Below, one piece after another: positions 9,763 to 48,863 of a stretch of 64,000 nucleotides of DNA. Under the pieces are notes generated by a model. That model had not been told where the DNA came from. It did not search any database and worked only from the letters and a program-made list of their open reading frames with translations. A program made the translations under genes and the position numbers. The DNA is from Cyclobacteriaceae bacterium (GTDB lineage Bacteria > Bacteroidota > Bacteroidia > Cytophagales > Cyclobacteriaceae): assembly GCA_043750575.1 (NCBI GenBank), contig JAYVBH010000009.1, positions 48,664 to 112,663 on the forward strand, given 5' to 3'. Position 1 is the stretch's first letter; every line of letters starts with the position of its first letter.

Positions 9763-10836
9763 ATGAAAATTGTTACCGTCCTCGGCGCGAGGCCTCAATT
9801 CATAAAGGCAGCCACAGTCTCCAGGGCCCTGACCAAAGCAGGCATTGCTGAGCGCATCGTCCATACAGGTCAACATTTCGACAAGAATATGTCGGACATC
9901 TTCTTCCGTGAAATGGAAATCCCAGCCGCACACTATAACCTTGAAATCAATAGCCTTGGGCATGGAGCCATGACCGGACGAATGCTGGAAAAGGTGGAGG
10001 AGGTACTTAATATAGAGAAGCCCGATGCGGTATTGGTTTACGGAGACACCAATTCCACACTGGCTGGCGCCCTTGCAGCCGCCAAACTCAGCATTCCAGT
10101 CGCCCACGTCGAGGCCGGTCTCCGCAGCTTCAACATGGCCATGCCAGAAGAAATCAATCGGATCCTCACTGACCGCATCAGTTCAATTCTATTCTGCCCC
10201 ACCACAACTGCTGTGAAGAATTTAAAAAAGGAAGGATTCGATAAATTTGATTGTCATATAGAACAACCTGGTGATGTCATGTTTGATGCACTCAAGTACT
10301 ATGGGAAGAAAGCAGAAGGCGTTTCCCGGGTACTGCAGAAGCAGAATCTCGCCGGAAAAGAATTTGTACTGGCTACCATCCACCGCGAAGAAAACACAAA
10401 CAATCCAAAGCGACTACTTGCTATCGTCGATGCACTGAACACCATCAACAAAACAGTTACTGTAGTCCTCCCCCTCCATCCGCGTACGCGCAGCTATCTG
10501 GACTCACACAAGATAAAGCTTGACGTCACCCTGCTTGACCCCGTCGGTTATTTTGATATGCTTATGCTTCTTCGCAATTGCCGAATGGTTTTCACGGATA
10601 GCGGCGGCCTGCAGAAGGAGGCCTACCTGTCGGCAAAGTTTTGTGTAACGCTGCGTGATCAGACAGAATGGACAGAGCTTTTGAAGACCGGTGCGAATGT
10701 GCTGGTGGGCGCAGACACGCGCAAGATTCTAGGTGCTTTCAGGAAGAATAGAAAGAAGGTGGTCGTTGTTAAACCGCTCTATGGTCGTGGAGATGCGGCA
10801 GATAAGATCGCAAAACGGTTGAAAAGGCTTGGTTAG
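9763..10836 (+). CDS. wecB: UDP-N-acetylglucosamine 2-epimerase (non-hydrolysing)
   Basis: MKIVTVLGARPQFIK, VHTGQH, VYGDTNSTLAG, HVEAGLRS, TDSGGLQKEA; start ATG 9763. Confidence 0.95.
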   Translation: MKIVTVLGARPQFIKAATVSRALTKAGIAERIVHTGQHFDKNMSDIFFREMEIPAAHYNLEINSLGHGAMTGRMLEKVEEVLNIEKPDAVLVYGDTNSTLAGALAAAKLSIPVAHVEAGLRSFNMAMPEEINRILTDRISSILFCPTTTAVKNLKKEGFDKFDCHIEQPGDVMFDALKYYGKKAEGVSRVLQKQNLAGKEFVLATIHREENTNNPKRLLAIVDALNTINKTVTVVLPLHPRTRSYLDSHKIKLDVTLLDPVGYFDMLMLLRNCRMVFTDSGGLQKEAYLSAKFCVTLRDQTEWTELLKTGANVLVGADTRKILGAFRKNRKKVVVVKPLYGRGDAADKIAKRLKRLG

Positions 10837-10888
10837 TGGGCAGTTCATTCTGTAGCTCAAAGCTTGCAGGCGTGAATGCGGAAAACTA

Positions 10889-10985
10889 AATTCAGGGCCA
10901 CAACGAACACAAAGAAGGGCACGACGATCACAAAGGGGAGATTAGACATTCGCCGTGCGCTTCATAGTTCTTTGTGGTCTGAATT
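10889..10985. repeat. Inverted CACAAAG-family cassette, gene-less
   Basis: aattcagggccacaacgaacacaaag...cacgacgatcacaaag / ctttgtggtctgaatt. Confidence 0.6.
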
Positions 10986-11012
10986 CCTTGAGACTTACTA
11001 TCTGATTGCTAC

Positions 11013-12140: not shown

Positions 12141-13115
12141 ATGGCAAGAATTCTCACCGGCATTCAAAGCAGCGGGCGGCCTCACCTGGGTAACCTGCTG
12201 GGTGCCATCATTCCGGGAATAGCGCTTTCCCGCAAGCCGGGCAACGACTCTTTGTTCTTCATTGCCGACCTTCACTCACTGACCACCATTCGTGACGCCG
12301 AATTGAGAAAACAGAACACCCTCGCAGTCGCTGCAGCCTGGATCGCTTTTGGTTTCGATACAAACAAGAATCTTCTCTACCGCCAAAGCCGTATCCCTGA
12401 AGTCTGCGAGCTGACCTGGTATTTGAGCTGCTTCACACCCTTTCCTATGCTTGCCAACTCGCATGCTTTCAAGGACAAGTCCGACCGGCTGGCCGATGTA
12501 AACGCGGGATTGTTCATTTACCCGGTCTTGATGGCTTCGGATATCATTATGTACGATGCCAATATTGTGCCTGTCGGCAAAGACCAGAAGCAGCACATGG
12601 AAATGACCCGCGACATCGCCACTTCATTCAACACCCAATTCGGCGAAACATTTGTCGTTCCGGAAGCACAGATTGACGACCGGGTAATGACGGTCCCTGG
12701 AACAGACGGGCAAAAGATGAGCAAGTCATCCAACAACATCATTGACATCCTCCTCACCGAAAAGGAGCTGAAGAAACAGGTCATGTCAATCATCACCGAC
12801 AGTACCCCGATGGAGGCCCCGAAAAACCCGGATACGGACACTGTGTTTGCGATTTACAAATTAGTGGCTACTGCAGAGCAAACGGCCGAGCTTCGAAAGA
12901 AATACCTGGCCGGAAATTTTGGGTACGGACATGCGAAGCAGGAGCTCTTGGGACTGCTCATTGATAAATACAAGGCTGAACGCGAGGCTTTTCAGAATCT
13001 CATGGCTAACCCCAAGGAAATAAACAGGAGACTGGAAGAGGGCGAAGCCCGAGCCCGGGTAATCGCGAGAGAAGTGTTGGGGAGAGTTAGAATCAAATTG
13101 GGATTCTCGGAGTAG
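12141..13115 (+). CDS. trpS: Tryptophan--tRNA ligase
   Basis: ILTGIQSSGRPHLGN (HIGH), VPVGKDQKQH, KMSKS. Confidence 0.97.
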   Translation: MARILTGIQSSGRPHLGNLLGAIIPGIALSRKPGNDSLFFIADLHSLTTIRDAELRKQNTLAVAAAWIAFGFDTNKNLLYRQSRIPEVCELTWYLSCFTPFPMLANSHAFKDKSDRLADVNAGLFIYPVLMASDIIMYDANIVPVGKDQKQHMEMTRDIATSFNTQFGETFVVPEAQIDDRVMTVPGTDGQKMSKSSNNIIDILLTEKELKKQVMSIITDSTPMEAPKNPDTDTVFAIYKLVATAEQTAELRKKYLAGNFGYGHAKQELLGLLIDKYKAEREAFQNLMANPKEINRRLEEGEARARVIAREVLGRVRIKLGFSE

Positions 13116-13128
13116 AAAGGCAAAGGTT

Positions 13129-13655
13129 GCCACAGATTTCACAGATTAGCACAGATTGTAAGGTCAGAATATCAACCTCTTGTATTCTAAGCTTTTTCGC
13201 CCAAAATTGACAAGTAAGCCGACTTCACACCCTGAAACCTTCAGGTAGTTGATAGTTTGAGCAATTTGATCATTGACGAGGCCACCTTCTACGGCCTTTA
13301 TTTCAAGAATTATCTTGTCCCTCACCACAAAGTCAGCATAGAACTTGTGCGGGAGGATTGAGTCTTTATACTTTATTGAGTATTGTACCTCTCTGCCGAA
13401 AGTAATTTCCTTTCGCATAAGTTCGAATTGAATTGCATCCTTGTAAACTATCTCGAGGAATCCCTTCCCGAGTGTACGGTGGACATCCATGCAAATCCCA
13501 ATCAAAACATAAGTCTCGTCTTTTAGAGGGAAGTTTATGTCAGTCGATTCAATCGCCATCGCACGCAAGTTCGCGCGATTTAAGCTTGCAACATTATGGT
13601 TAGCCTCCGGAATTCCTGACTAAAAAAATCTGTGCTAATCTGCGTAATCTGTGGC
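13129..13655. mobile_element. Putative mini-element: GxxExxY gene enclosed by 29-bp inverted CACAGATT-triplet arms
   Basis: Left GCCACAGATTTCACAGATTAGCACAGATT (13129-13157); right arm 13627-13655 reverse-complements to GCCACAGATTACGCAGATTAGCACAGATT (27/29 identical). Confidence 0.6.
13164..13559 (-). CDS. GxxExxY protein (PD-(D/E)XK nuclease superfamily)
   Basis: VHRTLGKGFLEIVY (GxxExxY), YADFVV..KIILEIKA, QTINYL, GLLVNFG; likely start ATG 13559. Confidence 0.95.
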   Translation of the reverse strand: MAIESTDINFPLKDETYVLIGICMDVHRTLGKGFLEIVYKDAIQFELMRKEITFGREVQYSIKYKDSILPHKFYADFVVRDKIILEIKAVEGGLVNDQIAQTINYLKVSGCEVGLLVNFGRKSLEYKRLIF

Positions 13656-13661
13656 CAGACT

Positions 13662-14069
13662 CTACTTAGCCGTCCACACAATCTGCTGCTTCTCGCTGCC
13701 GATGTTTAGAACGATACGGGGAGGATTGGGAAGAATGGCAAGCTTTGTGTCTTTGCCGGCATAGTCATCCATCTCAACGAAGACGCCTTCGGTGTTGGCA
13801 ACACTGTATTCGTTGTTGGCGCTGATCTGGTACTTTTTCGCGATGTAGGCGATGGGCACAAGCACATCGCTGTCGGGGCAGTACTCATCGTGAATATCCT
13901 GTAAGGCATGCTCCAAGTCATCGCCAAACGTCTCCTGGAAGTCGTCCTCCAAGTCATGAAGCTTCTCTTCGAGGTCATCATAGGCCGGATTGTTGTAATC
14001 AAGCTTGGCCAGTTCCTGCCGATTTTTGATGATTTCAAGAAGGGCTATATCCAGGGCTTTGACGTCCAT
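13662..14069 (-). CDS. Acidic hypothetical protein
   Basis: 135-aa ORF with host-like codon usage; no motif recognised. Confidence 0.75.
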   Translation of the reverse strand: MDVKALDIALLEIIKNRQELAKLDYNNPAYDDLEEKLHDLEDDFQETFGDDLEHALQDIHDEYCPDSDVLVPIAYIAKKYQISANNEYSVANTEGVFVEMDDYAGKDTKLAILPNPPRIVLNIGSEKQQIVWTAK

Positions 14070-14101
14070 ATGTGCGAATTTAGGGCAAGATTAGGGAAAA
14101 G

Positions 14102-14278
14102 AGCTACAAGCTGCAAGCTACAAGCTGCAAGCATGGCGTTGTGGTTGATTCAGACCAAGTTGTAAAGCCAACTGAAGCTATGTGGGACCTTCCTTTTGCC
14201 AAGTGCAAAGGCCCTGGCCACATGGCTAAGACTAGTCGGATTTGGTAGCCGCAAGCTTGCCGCTTGTAGCCTGTAGCC
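14102..14278. repeat. Inverted GCTACAA/GCTGCAA heptamer cassette, gene-less
   Basis: Left agctacaagctgcaagctacaagctgcaagc (14102-14132); right gcttgccgcttgtagcctgtagcc (14255-14278). Confidence 0.75.
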
Positions 14279-14340
14279 GGAAGCAACCTAGGTGACAATC
14301 CAAGCCGAATACGTAAATTTACCAAGCCAATTAATTTACT

Positions 14341-15435
14341 ATGAATAAGGACTTCCTACCCATCAATGGAACAGATCACATAGAATTCTATGTCGGGAAC
14401 GCCAAACAGGCTGCACTGTTTTACCAACACTGCTTCGGCTTTTCACTGGTTGCCTATGCAGGGCCTGAAACTGGAGTCCGGGACAGATCTTCCTATGTGT
14501 TGCAGCAAGACAAGATCCGCTTTGTGCTGACCACGTCATTGCAGCTTGGTTCAGAAATTGCCGAGCATGTTGACAGGCACGGAGATGGTGTCAAAGTTCT
14601 CGCGCTATGGGTTGATGATGCTACCAAATCATTTAATGAAACAGTAGTTCGCGGAGCGCATCCCGCCTTCGCGCCGCAGACAATGAAAGATGAGTTCGGC
14701 GAAGTCGTGATTGCCGCTATTCACACTTACGGTGAAACTCTCCACACGTTTGTGGAGCGGAAGAATTACAAAGGAGCCTTTCTCCCCGGCTACCGGGCGG
14801 TAAAGTCTACATTTCAGAATGTAGGCATCGGCCTCAAGTATGTTGACCATTGCGTTGGCAACGTTGAACTGGGGAAAATGAACACCTGGGTAGACTTCTA
14901 TGAAAAGGTTATGGGCTTCAGTCTCCTGCTGACGTTTGATGACAAGGATATCTCGACGGAATACAGCGCGCTGATGTCGAAGGTCGTATCCAACGGAAAC
15001 GGGTACATCAAGTTTCCGATCAACGAACCGGCCTCAGGAAAGAAAAAATCGCAGATTGAAGAGTACCTCGATTTCTATAAAGGCCCCGGTGTACAACACA
15101 TCGCCATCGCAACAGACGATATTGTCAAAACCGTTTCCGAATTGCGCAAGCGTGGGGTGGAATTCCTATATGTCCCGGATACCTATTACAAAGACATCCT
15201 TGACCGGGTCGGCAAGATCAACGAAAACCTGGATGACCTGAAGAAACAAAACATCCTGATCGACCGGGACGAGGAGGGCTATTTATTGCAGATCTTCACC
15301 AAGCCAATTCAGGATCGGCCGACTGTATTTTTCGAGATTATCGAGCGTAATGGCGCCAAATCTTTTGGTAAAGGAAATTTCAAGGCACTCTTCGAATCCA
15401 TCGAACGCGAACAAGCCCTACGCGGAAACTTATGA
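14341..15435 (+). CDS. hppD: 4-hydroxyphenylpyruvate dioxygenase
   Basis: DHCVGNV, KFPINEP, SQIEEY, QHIA, LLQIFTKP, FFEIIER, FGKGNFKALFESIE. Confidence 0.97.
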   Translation: MNKDFLPINGTDHIEFYVGNAKQAALFYQHCFGFSLVAYAGPETGVRDRSSYVLQQDKIRFVLTTSLQLGSEIAEHVDRHGDGVKVLALWVDDATKSFNETVVRGAHPAFAPQTMKDEFGEVVIAAIHTYGETLHTFVERKNYKGAFLPGYRAVKSTFQNVGIGLKYVDHCVGNVELGKMNTWVDFYEKVMGFSLLLTFDDKDISTEYSALMSKVVSNGNGYIKFPINEPASGKKKSQIEEYLDFYKGPGVQHIAIATDDIVKTVSELRKRGVEFLYVPDTYYKDILDRVGKINENLDDLKKQNILIDRDEEGYLLQIFTKPIQDRPTVFFEIIERNGAKSFGKGNFKALFESIEREQALRGNL

Positions 15436-17510: not shown

Positions 17511-17726
17511 AGGTTCAATAGTTCAAAGATCAAGATCAAAGTTCAAAGTTCAACAGTTCAAGGCTTGCCCCGACGTGGGAATTACCGGAAGTGAAATCGT
17601 CTGGGTCGGCAGGTGTTCAACTTTGGAAGTGAAAGAGCTATGCATTTTTGTCGGGGTTCAATAGTTCAGGGTTGAATAGTTTAAGGTCGAAAGTCTAAGG
17701 TTGAAGGTCGAAAGTCGAAAATGCAT
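17511..17726. repeat. Two direct arrays of GTTCAA/GTCGAA 7-8-mers with palindromic pieces
   Basis: gttcaatagttcaaagatcaagatcaaagttcaaagttcaacagttcaagg; gttcaatagttcagggttgaatagtttaaggtcgaaagtctaaggttgaaggtcgaaagtcgaaa; second array closed by atgcatttt/aaaatgcat. Confidence 0.7.
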
Positions 17727-18235: not shown

Positions 18236-18333
18236 GGGTACTCACCGCAAAGGCGCAAAGCCGCGAAGGACCGCGAAGAATCCTTAGCGGTACTTCGCGG
18301 CTTTGCCCCGGCCTTGTGCCGGGGTGGTTACTC
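18236..18333. repeat. CGCAAAG/CGCGAAG-family palindromic element, copy 1
   Basis: gggtactcaccgcaaaggcgcaaagccgcgaaggaccgcgaagaatccttagcggtacttcgcggctttg...gtggttactc. Confidence 0.75.
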
Positions 18334-19648
18334 GCTCTCCATTTGAAACCATACTCCCCGAATTCACTCCAACACAGTCTTCTGTGATTTGATCGATATG
18401 GATCAATTGCAACGCATTCACTTGCGCCTGCTCCACCGGCACCTTCACCCGCACATAGTTTTCGGTGAAACCGTGAATCATCCCATCTTCAATATCGTTC
18501 TCGAACAATACCGTACGGGTCGTGCCCACGTTCGTTTCATAGAATGCCCTGCGCTTCTTATCTGAAAGAATATGCAGCATGCGTGAACGTTCACTACGAA
18601 CATTCATCGGCACCGGGCTGGGGAGCGTGACGGCCAGCGTATTCTCGCGTTCGGAGTAGGTGAAGACATGCAGGTATGAAATATTGAGCTCGTTGAGGAA
18701 GGTGTAGGTCTCGAGGAACTCGTCGTTCGTCTCACCCGGGAATCCGACAATGACGTCAACACCAATGCACGCTTGGGGCATCTCCGACTTGATTCTCGCC
18801 ACCCGCTCTACGTACAATTCACGCTGATATCTCCGCCGCATCATCTTCAATATCTTATTGGAGCCAGACTGGAGGGGGATGTGGAAGTGTGGGACAAAAC
18901 GGTTGGACTGTGCCACAAACGCAATGATCTCGTTGGTCAGCAAGTTGGGTTCGATGGATGAAATCCTGAATCGCTCAATGCCTTCCACCTGGTCGAGTGC
19001 TTTGATAAGGTCGATGAACCGCTCCTTGCGCTCGCCGCCCTGTAGTCCGAAGTCGCCGGTGTTGACGCCGGTGAGGACGATCTCCCGCACGCCCGTCGCC
19101 GCGATCTCTTGGGCGGTCTTCACGATGTTGGCCACCGTATCACTGCGGCTCCCACCCCGGGCAAGAGGAATGGTGCAGAAGCTGCACGAGTAGTCACATC
19201 CATCCTGCACCTTGAGGAACGTCCGTGTACGGTCCTGCATCGAAAACGATGTGTGAAAGGTATTGACCTGATCGATGTCGCACGAATAGACCACCGGCTT
19301 CGGGGGCCGCACGAACCCATCAAGCAATTCCACCAGCCTGAACTTCTCATTCGCCCCCAACACCGCATCGACACCCGGGATAGCCGATATCGCCTCCGGC
19401 TTCAGCTGGGCATAGCACCCGATGATGGCCACATACGCATCCGGAGATATCGCCCGCGCATCACGCACGATCTTGTGGCACTTCTTATCCGCGTTTTCTG
19501 TAACGGAACAGGTGTTGATGATGAAGATATCCGGCGTATCCGCAAAGTCGACTTTCAAATACCCCTTCTCCTCGAACTTCCGGGAAATGGTGGAGGTTTC
19601 TGAGTAGTTCAGTTTGCAGCCGAGGGTGTAAAAAGCAACCTTCTTCAT
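18284..19648 (-). CDS. mtaB: tRNA t6A37 methylthiotransferase MtaB
   Basis: MKKVAFYTLGCKLNYSET, INTCSVT, radical SAM CDYSCSFC, ISSIEP, HFHIPLQSG; start ATG 19648. Confidence 0.94.
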   Translation of the reverse strand: MKKVAFYTLGCKLNYSETSTISRKFEEKGYLKVDFADTPDIFIINTCSVTENADKKCHKIVRDARAISPDAYVAIIGCYAQLKPEAISAIPGVDAVLGANEKFRLVELLDGFVRPPKPVVYSCDIDQVNTFHTSFSMQDRTRTFLKVQDGCDYSCSFCTIPLARGGSRSDTVANIVKTAQEIAATGVREIVLTGVNTGDFGLQGGERKERFIDLIKALDQVEGIERFRISSIEPNLLTNEIIAFVAQSNRFVPHFHIPLQSGSNKILKMMRRRYQRELYVERVARIKSEMPQACIGVDVIVGFPGETNDEFLETYTFLNELNISYLHVFTYSERENTLAVTLPSPVPMNVRSERSRMLHILSDKKRRAFYETNVGTTRTVLFENDIEDGMIHGFTENYVRVKVPVEQAQVNALQLIHIDQITEDCVGVNSGSMVSNGERVTTPAQGRGKAAKYR

Positions 19649-19710: not shown

Positions 19711-19801
19711 GGGTAACCACCGCTAAGACGCAACGGCGCAAAGGTCCGCGAAGAATTTCTTTGCGGAACTCTGCGTCTCTGTGCCTTTGCAGTGGTAACC
19801 C
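19711..19801. repeat. CGCAAAG-family palindromic element, copy 2
   Basis: gggtaaccaccgctaagacgcaacggcgcaaaggtccgcgaagaatttctttgcggaactctgcgtctctgtgcctttgcagtggtaaccc; aligns to copy 1. Confidence 0.8.
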
Positions 19802-33997: not shown

Positions 33998-34001
33998 GGG
34001 G

Positions 34002-34099
34002 GGAGTTAGGAGTTGGGTATTGGGTGTTGGGCGTTCGGTGTTGGGAGTTCGGTGTTCGGTGTTCGGTGTTCGGTGTTGGGTATTAGGCGTTAGGTGTTA
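34002..34099. repeat. 14 in-phase heptamers GGNRTTV filling the intergenic gap
   Basis: ggagtta ggagttg ggtattg ggtgttg ggcgttc ggtgttg ggagttc ggtgttc ggtgttc ggtgttc ggtgttg ggtatta ggcgtta ggtgtta. Confidence 0.92.
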
Positions 34100-34737: not shown

Positions 34738-34763
34738 ACCGCAGAGTCGGAGAGACGCAGAGG
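34738..34763. repeat. Half CGCAGAG-type periodic element
   Basis: accgcagagtcggagagacgcagagg. Confidence 0.45.
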
Positions 34764-34767
34764 AGTA

Positions 34768-35066
34768 CCCTATGGAATGTCTCACCGGACGGCGTCTCGC
34801 GTTCCGGTGTCCCGCGGCAGCCGCACAAATGCACCGGACGGCGCCTCTACGTTCCGGCAGCCGCACAAAGGCATTTCATCAAGCCGCACACAACACCCTA
34901 TGGAATGTCTCACCAGACGGCGTCTCGCGTTCCGGTGTCCCGCGACAGCCGCACAAATGCACCGGACGGCGTCTCGCGTTCCGGTGTCCCGCAGCAGCCG
35001 CACAAATGCACCGGACGGCGTCTCGCGTTCCGGTGTCCCGCGGCAGCCGTACAAACGTATTTCATT
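34768..35066. repeat. Array of 49-bp hairpin units in two higher-order blocks
   Basis: Unit caccggacggcgtctcgcgttccggtgtcccgcggcagccgcacaaatg at 34783, 34832 (variant), 34911, 34960, 35009; leader ccctatggaatgtct at 34768 and 34896. Confidence 0.93.
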
Positions 35067-37730: not shown

Positions 37731-37743
37731 TCCGGAACGCGGC

Positions 37744-37955
37744 TAAATGCACTTTGCCACAGATTACACAGATTCACACAGATTATCGGATCAAATTTTT
37801 CTCGGCGTTCTTTGCGCATATTCCTCAGCGACCTCTGCGGTTAAATGCACTTTGCCACAGATTACACGGATTCACACAGATTATCGGATCAAATTCTTCT
37901 CGGCGTCCTTTGCGCCTATTCCTCAGCGGCTCTGCGGCTCTGCGGTTAAATGCAT
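37744..37955. repeat. Tandem 98/105-bp units, each a CACAGATT-triplet arm joined to a CTCTGCG-family arm
   Basis: taaatgca at 37744, 37842, 37947; GCCACAGATTACACAGATTCACACAGATT from 37757 and a 1-mismatch copy from 37855. Confidence 0.92.
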
Positions 37956-39683
37956 TTAACCCCGCTCAATCAAGCAGTTCTCCAACACAAGCATATCCAT
38001 TTCAGTGCGCAAAAAACAATTCAGCGCCTCTTGCGGGGTATTGACGATGGGCTCATTCTCATTGAACGAAGTATTCAACAAGATCGGGACTCCCGTCCTC
38101 TTTCTAAAGCACTCTATGAGACCGTAATACCGGGGCGATACCTCCTTCATGACCGTTTGCAACCTGCCCGTGCCATCCACGTGCGTTACCGCCGGGATGA
38201 TGGAGCGCTTTTCGGGACGGATGGGAAATACTTTCTCCATGAACGGAACGTCCTCGACTTTTTCAAAATACTCACTGGTGTATTCTTTCAGAATAGACGG
38301 GGCGAACGGGCGAAAGCTTTCTCGACGTTTGATCTTCGAGTTAAGCAAGTCTTTCGCCTTTGGGTTGCGCGGGTCGGCGAGGATGGAGCGTGCACCCAAT
38401 GCCCTCGGACCAAACTCTGCCCTTCCCGAAAACCAGCCTACTACTCCCGGCTCCAGCAGCTTATCCGTGATTTTCTCGAATAGTTCATCATCCGGCAGAC
38501 GACGGTAACTCACACCCTGCCCCTTGAGAAAAGTCTCAATCTCATCATTGGAAAACTTGCTGCCCGTGTAGGCACTGTAGATCGCTGGGGCGCGTTTATT
38601 ACGGAGCACATGATTATGCACATACAGCGCACTGCCCATGCTGATACCCGCATCATGACCGGCAGAAGGAATGTAGAGATTCTTAAAGGCAGTCTTCTCC
38701 AAAATCTTTCCATTGGCTACCGAGTTCTGTGCCACGCCGCCGGCAATACAAACGTTTCCCAATCCCGTTCGGTCTTGAAGTTTATTCAGAATGTGAAGGA
38801 TCAATTCCTCGCAGACCAATTGAACACTGGCGGCGATGTCCTTATGTTTTTGAGTTAGCTCTTCCGTGGGCTTGCGGGCAGGTCCGAAAATATCTTCGAT
38901 CTTCTTCCCGTACAGGGTGGAAATGACCGGGACAGACGTAGAATAATCCAGTTTGATCTCGGTAGGGCTGGCAAAATAGGACGCATCCCATCCGAACAGT
39001 CCGTCTGGTTTGAAGTGTAAAACTTTTCGGATCTCTTCCGCAAATACCGGCTTGCCATAAGGGGCCAGGCCCATTACCTTGTATTCATCCCCATAGTGCG
39101 GGAAGCCCAGGTACTGTGTAAAGGCCGTGTAAAACAATCCAGCGGAGACCGGAAAATCCACAGAATCAAGAACCTCGATCTGGTTGCCACGACCAACCGC
39201 AATCATGGTAGTGGTAAAATCTCCGGAGCCATCAATAGAGAGTATGGCCGCTTCCTCAAATGGACTGGCGAAGAAAGCCGAAGCGAGGTGACTGCGGTGG
39301 TGCTCGACTTGAACGATGCGGGGCTTGATCTCCGATTCGCTTAATCCACTGATGGCTGCAAGCTCATGCTCCAGGCTGGCCACCTTACTGGAGTTCTTCA
39401 GCCGATCCGACAACAGGGTATTCTTCTTGCCAATATTTTTCAGAACAAATCCAACCTTCCTCCAGAATTTAGCCCTGAGGTCTCGCCCAATGCAAATATG
39501 GTCAACCTCTTTCAACGTTATCCCGGCCTCTTGCAAGCAGAACTTCACCGCCTCACTCGGGAATCCCACCCAGTGTTTAATGCGACGGAACCGTTCTTCT
39601 TCAGTGGCCGCAATAAGAACGCCATCTTTAAAGATGGCGGCGGAAGAGTCTGCGTGGTGGGCGTTAAGGCCGAGGATGTACAT
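37956..39683 (-). CDS. Carbamoyltransferase (NodU/CmcH family)
   Basis: HADSSAA, EEERFRR.KH, VEHHRSH, GGVAQN, EFGPRALGARSIL, RESFRPFAP, THVDGTGRLQTV, LNTSFN. Confidence 0.95.
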   Translation of the reverse strand: MYILGLNAHHADSSAAIFKDGVLIAATEEERFRRIKHWVGFPSEAVKFCLQEAGITLKEVDHICIGRDLRAKFWRKVGFVLKNIGKKNTLLSDRLKNSSKVASLEHELAAISGLSESEIKPRIVQVEHHRSHLASAFFASPFEEAAILSIDGSGDFTTTMIAVGRGNQIEVLDSVDFPVSAGLFYTAFTQYLGFPHYGDEYKVMGLAPYGKPVFAEEIRKVLHFKPDGLFGWDASYFASPTEIKLDYSTSVPVISTLYGKKIEDIFGPARKPTEELTQKHKDIAASVQLVCEELILHILNKLQDRTGLGNVCIAGGVAQNSVANGKILEKTAFKNLYIPSAGHDAGISMGSALYVHNHVLRNKRAPAIYSAYTGSKFSNDEIETFLKGQGVSYRRLPDDELFEKITDKLLEPGVVGWFSGRAEFGPRALGARSILADPRNPKAKDLLNSKIKRRESFRPFAPSILKEYTSEYFEKVEDVPFMEKVFPIRPEKRSIIPAVTHVDGTGRLQTVMKEVSPRYYGLIECFRKRTGVPILLNTSFNENEPIVNTPQEALNCFLRTEMDMLVLENCLIERG

Positions 39684-47948: not shown

Positions 47949-48863
47949 CTATGCCTTAAGAATACTAGCTAGACCAGCTTCCAAAGAAATCAATGGCCTA
48001 TTCAATACAGTCATCATTTTGGCAATATCAGGCTGTCTTCGCGTCATATCACCTTCTTTTAGTGGGGGTAAATTAATAATTCTTGATCGCGATTTCGTAA
48101 TCTTCAAAATTGTTTCCGCCAATTCCAAAACCGCAGTTAATCTATCATTCCCAACGTTAACCACATCATTTACAAAATGATTCCCCTCAAGGACCTTTAG
48201 GGTGAATTCTGTATTGTCATCAACATAGCAAAACGTCCGCGTTTGACCCCCATCACCATAAACAGTAATATCTTCATTTAGCTTTGCAGCCTTCATAAAC
48301 TTTGAAATCACAAAATCCTCACTTTGCCTCGGTCCATAAGTATTAAAGAATCTAAAAACAGTATAATCCAGACCAAACTCTTTTTGATATGACTTGCAGA
48401 AGCACTCGCCCAAGTTCTTCACAACGGCATACGGCAATCTTGAATTGAGCGGAGTCACATGCTCATGCTGAGGCAAATGCACAGGCTCACCATAGACTTC
48501 AGAAGAAGATGAAAAGAATATTCTCTTTACACAGGTATTCTTTGATAACTCAAAAATGTTTTGCAGTCCCTTGATATCCTCCAATACCAATTTTGGATTA
48601 TCCGTTGTTCTGGCTACCCCGACTACAGCAGCATAATGAAAAACATAATCAAAATCATAGTGGAGCATTACCGACGCCAAACTCGGGAAATCATTAACAT
48701 CGCACCTGATAAACCTGTAATTTGGGTGAGCAGGTAAGTTTCCCGTTTTCCCGGTAAGCAGACTATCCACACCAACAACCAAGTACCTACCCGAGTTAAG
48801 GAGGGTATCAGCAAGCGAACTAGGAATAAATCCAGCGGCCCCAGTGATAAGAACAGTTTTCAT
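47949..48863 (-). CDS. NAD-dependent epimerase/dehydratase (UDP-glucuronate decarboxylase-like)
   Basis: TGAAGFI, SSSEVYG, PYAVVK, RFFNTYGPRQ, QTRTFCYVDD. Confidence 0.88.
   Translation of the reverse strand: MKTVLITGAAGFIPSSLADTLLNSGRYLVVGVDSLLTGKTGNLPAHPNYRFIRCDVNDFPSLASVMLHYDFDYVFHYAAVVGVARTTDNPKLVLEDIKGLQNIFELSKNTCVKRIFFSSSSEVYGEPVHLPQHEHVTPLNSRLPYAVVKNLGECFCKSYQKEFGLDYTVFRFFNTYGPRQSEDFVISKFMKAAKLNEDITVYGDGGQTRTFCYVDDNTEFTLKVLEGNHFVNDVVNVGNDRLTAVLELAETILKITKSRSRIINLPPLKEGDMTRRQPDIAKMMTVLNRPLISLEAGLASILKA

Follow-up and report, generated by a model that had tools for sequence, protein, structure and literature searches.

The 64,000-nt stretch of DNA analysed in this work (the window; positions 48,664 to 112,663 of contig JAYVBH010000009.1 from a Cyclobacteriaceae bacterium) contains a 527-bp cassette, in which a small nuclease gene of the GxxExxY family is enclosed by two inverted arms built of short, periodically spaced cores. 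The cassette lies between two convergent genes, trpS (12141-13115, plus strand) and a gene coding for a 135-aa protein (13662-14069, minus strand). A repeat search of the window returned one strong inverted pair, 13129-13157 and 13627-13655; the arms are 29 nt each, complementary in 27 of 29 positions (93%) and 469 nt apart. In the orientation of the gene the arm at 13129-13157 is on the 3' side and contains three exact cores (GC+CACAGATT-T-CACAGATT-AG-CACAGATT), the arm at 13627-13655 is on the 5' side and reads, on the minus strand, GCCACAGATT-A-CGCAGATT-AG-CACAGATT, i.e. two exact cores and one A>G variant (CGCAGATT). In both arms the cores are spaced by 9, then by 10 nt. The core CACAGATT occurs in 12 copies in the window, compared to 2.7 +/- 1.7 in shuffled sequences, and none of 100 shuffles reached 12. 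The GxxExxY gene (13164-13559, minus strand) encodes 131 amino acids from its ATG, or 134 if translation starts at a TTG nine bases 5' of the ATG; the 5' inner region between ATG and arm (13560-13626, minus strand) is within the conserved part of the cassette and is 97% identical to the corresponding region of the sister sequence L003. Six nucleotides (13158-13163) separate the left arm, at its inner end, from the stop codon of the GxxExxY gene, and another six (13656-13661) lie between the outer end of the right arm and the stop codon of the 135-aa gene; the distance from the left arm to the trpS stop codon is 13 nt. There is no direct repeat beside the arms that would indicate a target-site duplication, and no transposase gene within +/-4 kb of the cassette. 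This layout agrees with a first-pass annotation made from the sequence alone, which had described the 27/29 match of the arms around a 131-aa gene, the 6-nt distance of each arm from a stop codon, and the lack of a target-site duplication and of a transposase; its three cores per arm are present in exact form in the left arm, the right arm having a variant in place of one of them.

The assignment of the encoded protein to the PD-(D/E)XK superfamily, made in the same annotation from its D..ExK residues, was borne out by profile searches and by structure prediction. The protein matched TIGR04256 (GxxExxY, E = 1.9e-36, 124.9 bits, cut-off 35) and PF13366 (PDDEXK_3, E = 2.9e-33, 115.1 bits, cut-off 22), and these were the only matches in a Pfam/NCBIfam scan. 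The family motif is G33-F-L-E36-I-V-Y39, and the putative catalytic residues are D76, E86 and K88 (YADF...LEIK); in 62 homologues D76 and K88 are invariant and E86 is nearly so. The AlphaFold (AF2) model (pLDDT 92.9) is a PD-(D/E)XK fold, as judged by Foldseek, whose best matches in the Protein Data Bank (PDB) were Cas4 SSO0001 (E = 2.4e-5), nucleases of the lambda exonuclease/RecB type, the AddAB nuclease and Hjc resolvases. A search of the PDB by sequence gave no match. The PF13366/TIGR04256 family is large, 19,957 clusters at 50% identity (E <= 1e-3), and has left few traces in the literature: in the limited collection that we searched, the names GxxExxY and PDDEXK_3 and the accessions yielded one table entry ('Unknown') and two incidental mentions, the arm sequences matched unrelated primers only, and no published account of such cassettes or arms was found. 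Some members of the family carry two GxxExxY domains in tandem within 250-277 aa (P0252, P0258, P0285, P0290, P0294, P0299, P0353 and P0357).

The arms are not peculiar to the window. A scan in which each species was represented by one genome, and an alignment of 12 homologues served as the query, yielded 80 loci, mostly from metagenome-assembled genomes (MAGs), which belong to Bacteroidota, Ignavibacteria/Chlorobiota and one Acidobacteriota MAG and encode proteins 53-71% identical to the window protein. Cultured carriers include Niabella aurantiaca DSM 17617 (L054), Flavobacterium arsenatis (L044) and Avrilella dinanensis (L014). Arms were then looked for by a test that uses no motif and requires an inverted-repeat score of 13 or more when the upstream flank is compared with the downstream one, with the other open reading frames (ORFs) of the same loci as controls. 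Such a flanking repeat was present at 67 of 85 GxxExxY genes (from about 80 genomes) and at 21 of 771 control ORFs (2.7%), corresponding to an odds ratio of 133 (Fisher p = 1e-63); small control ORFs (<=200 aa) had it in 5 of 211 cases. The enrichment of arms at GxxExxY genes, for which the first-pass annotation had proposed a test, holds across the family in these genomes. Searching by regular expression, we found a GCCAC arm upstream together with a GTGGC arm downstream at 49 of the 85 genes, and one of the two at 25 more. The type of the core differs by genome (CACAGAT, CACGAAT, CACTAAT, CACGGAT, CGCAGAT, CACAGAA, CACGGAG); the GCCAC cap is found on arms nearly everywhere, and the pattern GCCAC...GAT is kept across distant hosts. 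Weakly scoring members, such as L147 from a GC-rich host, L193 and the gene at 5606-6095 of L069, also lie in GCCAC-type arms, and a subfamily of only 33% identity adjoins CCCGCAGAT...ATCTGCGGG hairpins. The arms can affect annotation: ACAGAT translates as 'TD', and arm sequence has been read into annotated N-termini, giving over-long ORFs with recurrent M..TD.. starts (examples are P0022, P0034, P0057, P0081, P0084, L147 908-1361 and L069 5606-6095).

The site next to trpS could be followed through Cyclobacteriaceae by collecting trpS homologues with their contigs; the comparison is between species. In the window and in L003, L011 and L013 the site between trpS and the 135-aa gene is occupied by a cassette whose gene is antisense to trpS, and in L085 (= L007), L089 and L091-93 it is occupied by a cassette with the gene on the trpS strand. 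In L094/L095 the site is empty: the two stop codons are joined as TAA-cggaggccggga-CTA (12 nt), free of arms and of hairpins. This provides the empty site that the first-pass annotation had suggested looking for at the trpS 3' locus of sister genomes, and the empty state was seen in at least two independent metagenomes. At the occupied sites the arms are 0-13 nt from both stop codons, and in L013 the TAG of trpS overlaps the arm. Relative to this hairpin-free site, the cassette with its arms is an insertion; as the empty site has no hairpin, the gene and the arms would have arrived together or in quick succession. Both orientations are represented by proteins that are 74% identical (L091 versus L011/L013). 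Decayed copies also exist: in L085 the gene is frameshifted and the right arm has expanded to an array, and L192 holds a GxxExxY pseudogene.

The tree of the cassettes roughly tracks the trees of the trpS and 135-aa flanks. Between L011 and L013 the nucleotide identity is 82-87% in the cassette and 75-88% in the flanks, and their GxxExxY genes are 92% identical at the protein level and about 84% at the nucleotide level. The co-divergence of cassette and flanks, taken with the high protein identity, points to vertical descent of this pair under purifying selection. The GxxExxY gene, whose catalytic residues are retained, is under purifying selection. Two interpretations of the site were tried and abandoned. 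One was that L094 is nested among occupied lineages and has lost the cassette precisely, which we regard as unproven, the trpS and 135-aa protein trees being nearly star-like; the other took reads from the source metagenomes that skip the cassette for an empty trpS allele, and these joints turned out to be other hairpins that match the arms only. Further genes near the cassette encode a DUF1573 protein, an epimerase, 4-hydroxyphenylpyruvate dioxygenase (HPPD), a cupin and PGM. In the intergenic region of the convergent epimerase and DUF1573 genes L089 has an empty CACAGATT hairpin (1288-1357) where L085 and L094 have overlapping stop codons, which argues that empty hairpins, too, are gained or lost; the same region of the window (10837-11012) contains unrelated repeats.

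Movement of the cassette is indicated by a single MAG, two contigs of which (L066 and L071) carry cassettes that are 95% identical over 466 bp in unrelated flanks. The homology starts exactly at the GCCAC of the left arm. A cassette from another MAG (L080) is 96% identical to that of L066, and no target-site duplication is visible at the junctions in L066, L071 or L080. L051 also has two GxxExxY copies. The paralogous L066 and L071 cassettes each contain a precisely inserted, GC-rich mini-hairpin of 36 nt (CCCGCCTGCC...GGCGGGCAGG), located in the 5' inner region of the former (about 9950-9990) and in the right arm of the latter (after 10384); L080 lacks it. The Logan contig L002 (1-1089) may represent a second locus of the window cassette or, alternatively, a k-mer chimera formed through the shared 32-nt arm: in it a cassette of 98.9% identity, whose 5' arm is of the L003 type, adjoins a gene for a short-chain dehydrogenase that the window lacks.

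Exchange between lineages is suggested by the comparison of the window with L003. The GxxExxY genes are 98.7% identical and the left arms identical, whereas the flanking genes are 82-88% identical. A 400-bp identity profile over 13 kb varies between 0.72 and 0.895 with a single peak, 0.985, on the cassette. The low-divergence tract, from about 12950 to 13700, takes in some 170 bp of trpS and some 45 bp of the neighbour on the other side, and looks like the product of a recent recombinational exchange that was centred on the cassette and carried flanking DNA along. It must be noted that this is a single case; duplication within a genome and exchange are each represented by one clear example. 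These comparisons support the view that the history of the cassette is uncoupled from that of its flanks, and they indicate that the cassette, as a unit, undergoes insertion, duplication, inversion, decay and exchange.

It could be argued that GxxExxY is an ordinary, perhaps beneficial cellular nuclease with a role in, for example, repair or defence, that it is inherited vertically, and that the hairpins around it are the usual intergenic repeats. Purifying selection, the long persistence next to trpS across a bacterial family and the high conservation of the protein (mean column identity of 62% across the homologue alignment) would all be expected of such a gene. An ordinary gene would not account for flanks that are this rare among control ORFs, small ones included, nor for the empty state, the orientation flips, the pseudogenes, the arm-bounded paralogues and the identity peak confined to the cassette. 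In addition, the window protein had no match in PADLOC or PHROGs. We consider this explanation quite improbable.

We favour another reading, to which we would assign a probability of about 0.5. The family, in this reading, is widespread and consists of single-gene selfish cassettes, in which a GxxExxY nuclease gene of about 125 codons is located within or beside a palindrome resembling the repetitive extragenic palindromic (REP) elements, the arms being composed of two or three, sometimes many, tandem C[A/G]CNGAT-type cores with a GCC cap. The cassette would be a selfish system run by a PD-(D/E)XK nuclease, similar to the systems formed by REP doublets forming hairpins (REPINs) and REP-associated tyrosine transposases (RAYTs), and having homing-like features. 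We infer that the nuclease recognises its own arms. It would bind the repeated cores, or the hairpin or cruciform formed by them, and cut palindromes of its own family; an occupied copy would then act as the template for repair of the break, the arms providing portable homology, and in this way the gene would be copied into empty palindromes. The arms being mutually inverted, such repair could take place in either orientation. Acting in trans, this activity might also maintain and spread hairpins that lack the gene, much as RAYT does with REPINs. Transcripts that read through the cassette could fold the arms into a stem of about 29 bp, which may sequester the start codon, and cutting of this stem by RNase III may make an insertion between convergent genes harmless. 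The term selfish cassette, used in the first-pass annotation, appears reasonable in view of the arm association, the empty site, the arm-bounded copies and the uncoupled history. The nature of the arms is less favourable to what had been claimed there: they cannot simply be called the gene's own repeats, as the following shows.

Periodic arms identified by regular expression numbered 378 in 1.19 Mb, compared to 14-21 after block shuffling, and outside GxxExxY genes their density is about one per 5 kb. In a reverse test, the pattern GCCACAGATTNCACAGATT matched at least 120 metagenome contigs, and in the first 80 loci examined we found 91 arms. Three or four of these were beside a GxxExxY gene and 29 were empty hairpins with the partner arm within 120 nt; of the remainder, 10 had a partner 120-700 nt away with no GxxExxY gene, and 42 had none within 700 nt. 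All 17 matches of GCCACAGATTNCACAGATT in contigs of a viral collection were gene-less, and the viral contigs contained no close relatives of GxxExxY. In metagenomes that contain the window sequence, the arm bins have about seven times the depth of the flanks, and contigs break off at the arms. At their outer end the empty hairpins have the consensus T-rich plus GCCAC. Empty hairpins were located in convergent, tandem and divergent intergenic regions in 15, 36 and 4 cases, against a background of 142, 647 and 113; convergent and tandem regions are thus favoured and divergent ones avoided. In several contigs arms have grown into long tandem arrays with periods of 24 or 46 nt and the same cores (L085 3975-4290, about 300 bp; L011 9848-9909; L149 1660-1900; L152), and in L109 one hairpin family is nested within the loop of another.

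The window itself contains two solo, gene-less arms on the plus strand, GCCACAGATTACACAGATTCACACAGATT at 37757-37784 and a second at 37855-37882, which belong to the first and the second copy of a 98-bp tandem unit (37739-37960, 2.1 copies). Each unit comprises a CACAGATT x3 arm and a CGCAGAG/CGCTGAG-type arm, and the tract is free of ORFs. We had considered these units as empty hairpins and rejected the idea, as they do not fold into a hairpin. Other periodic repeats were also noticed in the window. Two strong hairpins of a second family with CGCAAAG/CGCGAAG cores, at 18245-18299 and 19736-19783 (folding free energy, dG, -30.6 kcal/mol, z = -7.6), bracket a 454-aa ORF (18283-19648), a putative radical-SAM protein judged by eye from a CxxxCxxC motif; this repeat family is also present in L011, L035 and L079. 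Intergenic tracts with heptamer periods (GCTACAA/GCTGCAA, GTTCAAA, GTTCGGT) are found at 14102-14132/14247-14280, at 17513-17561 and 17655-17720, and at 34001-34098, the first pair forming an inverted-arm hairpin around about 115 nt without an ORF. Finally, a 49-bp unit is repeated three times at 34780-35055 (94% matches), with diverged copies upstream and CGCAGAG-type cores adjoining at 34740-34770.

Several of our observations weigh against the nuclease-driven cassette. Of the arms detected by pattern, about 96% have no GxxExxY gene beside them and only about 4% do, and such arms could be host elements independent of the gene. About 19 of the genes, roughly a quarter, lie between two complete hairpins or have arms turned 'inside-out', with the GCC ends on the side of the gene, and this reversed polarity fits poorly with a transposon end of fixed polarity. 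The spacing of the cores ranges from 8 to 10 nt, and among close relatives the cores drift by transitions that show no obvious tie to the allele of the protein. Most of the history of the trpS site looks vertical, with one clear exchange seen. The model also requires host recombination, as DNA is not inserted by a nuclease on its own. Arms also enclose other genes: in L175 an ORF for a Vsr mismatch endonuclease (PF03852) is located between CACAGATT-type arms 943 nt apart, and in L170 an ORF for a Gp49/HigB-type toxin (PF05973) between CACAGATT-type arms 880 nt apart, which suggests that the cargo may be interchangeable.

Much of this would be explained if the hairpins formed an independent repeat family, spread by another enzyme or serving as terminators or insulators, and GxxExxY were a passenger or a loop-targeting homing gene with a preference for sites within or next to the hairpins, comparable to IS1397 in REP loops, the nuclease having no part in the spread of the repeats. 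The overwhelming majority of gene-less arms agrees with this, as do the hairpin nesting in L109 and the mini-hairpin inserted in an arm, the Vsr and toxin genes as other cargo, the hairpin-gene-hairpin arrangement of some genes, and the preference of empty hairpins for convergent and tandem intergenic regions. Such an explanation does not sit easily with an empty trpS site that is wholly without a hairpin, nor with an association that is very strong and specific to the class of protein, a different class of small proteins being found with other cores (see below). Simple terminators, moreover, would be expected to drift, and would not keep the GCCAC...GAT core across distant hosts. On balance we think it rather unlikely that the hairpins are independent of the nuclease.

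The different class emerged from the controls. Among the control ORFs with strong flanking repeats were genes for four-helix-bundle proteins annotated as '23S rRNA-intervening sequence protein' (PF05635), and five of six PF05635 genes had periodic inverted arms (L038 8319-8678, L014 4214-4573, L074 1613-1957, L188 910-1200 and L223 5787-6122). The cores of these arms are TGAGTAT heptamers, AATTAGC or AT-rich units and differ from those at GxxExxY genes. That two unrelated families of small proteins have each their own class of arms speaks for a functional link between protein and arm class. It is possible that the GxxExxY and the four-helix-bundle cassettes belong to one unrecognised class, in which each protein, of about 120 aa, has a family of periodic palindromic repeats as its partner: it would cut or mark these repeats, the arms would provide portable homology for copying-in by host recombination, folding of the arms in RNA would make the insertions harmless, and rRNA intervening sequences with an ORF would represent a special landing site of the class. 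We put forward this generalisation tentatively and regard it as less likely than not.

The role of RNA folding in these proposals raises the question of whether the arms act mainly at the RNA level, the stem being cut by RNase III and the ORF excised or silenced in the manner of a 23S rRNA intervening sequence. The arms are paired in the fold predicted for the entire cassette (dG -188 kcal/mol, z = -8), and their position 0-13 nt from the stop codons of convergent genes as well as the shared architecture of the PF05635 genes in these genomes are what this explanation would predict. In many homologues the 5' arm reaches the start codon or extends over it, and TAnnTTTG, the -7 motif of Bacteroidota, is not enriched in the 5' inner regions (1 of 45 compared to 2.5 expected); from this it follows that the arms are probably transcribed. 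Consensus scanning of the window revealed a weak sigma-70-like match at 13622-13593, within the 5' inner region, and a putative, terminator-like element, a small GC hairpin with a T-run (13119-13131, minus strand), which abuts the 3' arm on the strand of the gene. The pattern of substitutions does not favour selection for pairing. Mismatches between arms are mostly transversions and fall in the spacers, the numbers of G:U-type and A:C-type mismatches (38 and 27) do not differ significantly (p = 0.21), and between the window and L003 there are no compensatory changes, the core motif being conserved and not the pairing. Solo arms and direct arrays, which cannot form stems, are common. Rfam gave no match in the whole window at the gathering threshold or in 13000-14400 at E <= 1, and among the RNA runs looked through for the cassette none was found to hold it. 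RNA processing would also leave the spread of the cassette as DNA unexplained. A primary role of the arms in RNA, which could coexist with the other explanations, therefore seems very unlikely to us.

If the nuclease does service the palindromes, as we favour, the REPIN/RAYT lifestyle would have been invented independently on a different enzyme fold, and the hundreds of periodic hairpins per Bacteroidota genome would have an explanation. For the large PF13366/TIGR04256 family the analysis supplies a concrete and testable genomic context, and the parallel with the four-helix-bundle cassettes offers a route to the question of how ORF-bearing rRNA intervening sequences originated. There is also a practical side, because the arms break short-read assemblies and create annotation artefacts in the form of arm-translated N-termini.

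It is instructive to compare the cassette with REP/REPIN-RAYT systems, to which the first-pass annotation had likened it. Both have abundant extragenic repeats that form palindromes, a nuclease gene flanked by inverted copies of the repeat, and gene-less copies that far outnumber the gene. Purifying selection on the enzyme is also shared, and so, perhaps, is a largely vertical, long-lasting inheritance, which is seen here at the trpS site. The enzyme is different, a PD-(D/E)XK nuclease of about 125 aa here and an HUH/Y1 transposase (IS200/IS605-like) there. REP units are imperfect palindromes of small size whose 5' tag, GTAG or CGTC, is conserved (PMC3733652), whereas the arms of the cassette start with GCCAC and are tandem direct repeats of 8-10 nt without an internal palindrome. 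Furthermore, unlike RAYT genes, the GxxExxY gene can be multi-copy (L066/L071) and is often inside one long palindrome. The REP part of the analogy is reasonable, but the cassette is not a RAYT, from which it differs in enzyme fold as well as in repeat tag.

Free-standing homing endonuclease genes are similar in that some lineages have the element at a site that in one lineage is empty, the low-divergence tract spills into the flanks in a manner reminiscent of co-conversion, degenerate copies exist, and the element consists of a single nuclease gene without target-site duplication. In contrast to these genes, the presumed target of the cassette is a dispersed repeat and not a unique site in a conserved gene, the homology used would be arms of about 20-30 bp, cleavage is putative, and the GxxExxY protein is far more conserved than typical homing endonucleases. 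Two kinds of transposable elements share parts of the architecture. IS1397 and ISKpn1 insert into the loops of REPs, and are thus gene-carrying elements in the loop of a host palindromic repeat; Tn7 and Sleeping Beauty have inverted repeat/direct repeat (IR/DR) ends, in which several direct copies of a motif per end are inverted between the ends. The cassette differs from both in having neither a DDE or other transposase nor a target-site duplication, in the arm polarity being reversed in about a quarter of the cases, and in that the arms are the gene-less repeats of the genome. It is not a classical terminal inverted repeat (TIR) transposon, since there is no target-site duplication, no transposase and no constant arm polarity.

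The ORF-bearing 23S rRNA intervening sequences (S23p, PF05635) are similar in that a small ORF is placed between inverted flanks that are predicted to form a long stem, and the PF05635 genes found in this work are themselves in analogous periodic-arm cassettes. For Coxiella, the 23S rRNA intervening sequence, with its ORF in helix 45, has been described as selfish (PMC4990558). Our cassette is not an rRNA intervening sequence; the differences are that it is located between protein-coding genes in a window free of rRNA genes, that the protein has a different fold, and that the cores are of the CACAGAT type at GxxExxY and of the TGAGTAT or AATTAGC type at PF05635 genes. Seen against these systems, the cassette appears to be of a kind already known, in which a nuclease accompanies selfish palindromic repeats, and the pairing of this enzyme with these arms is apparently undescribed in the literature searched.

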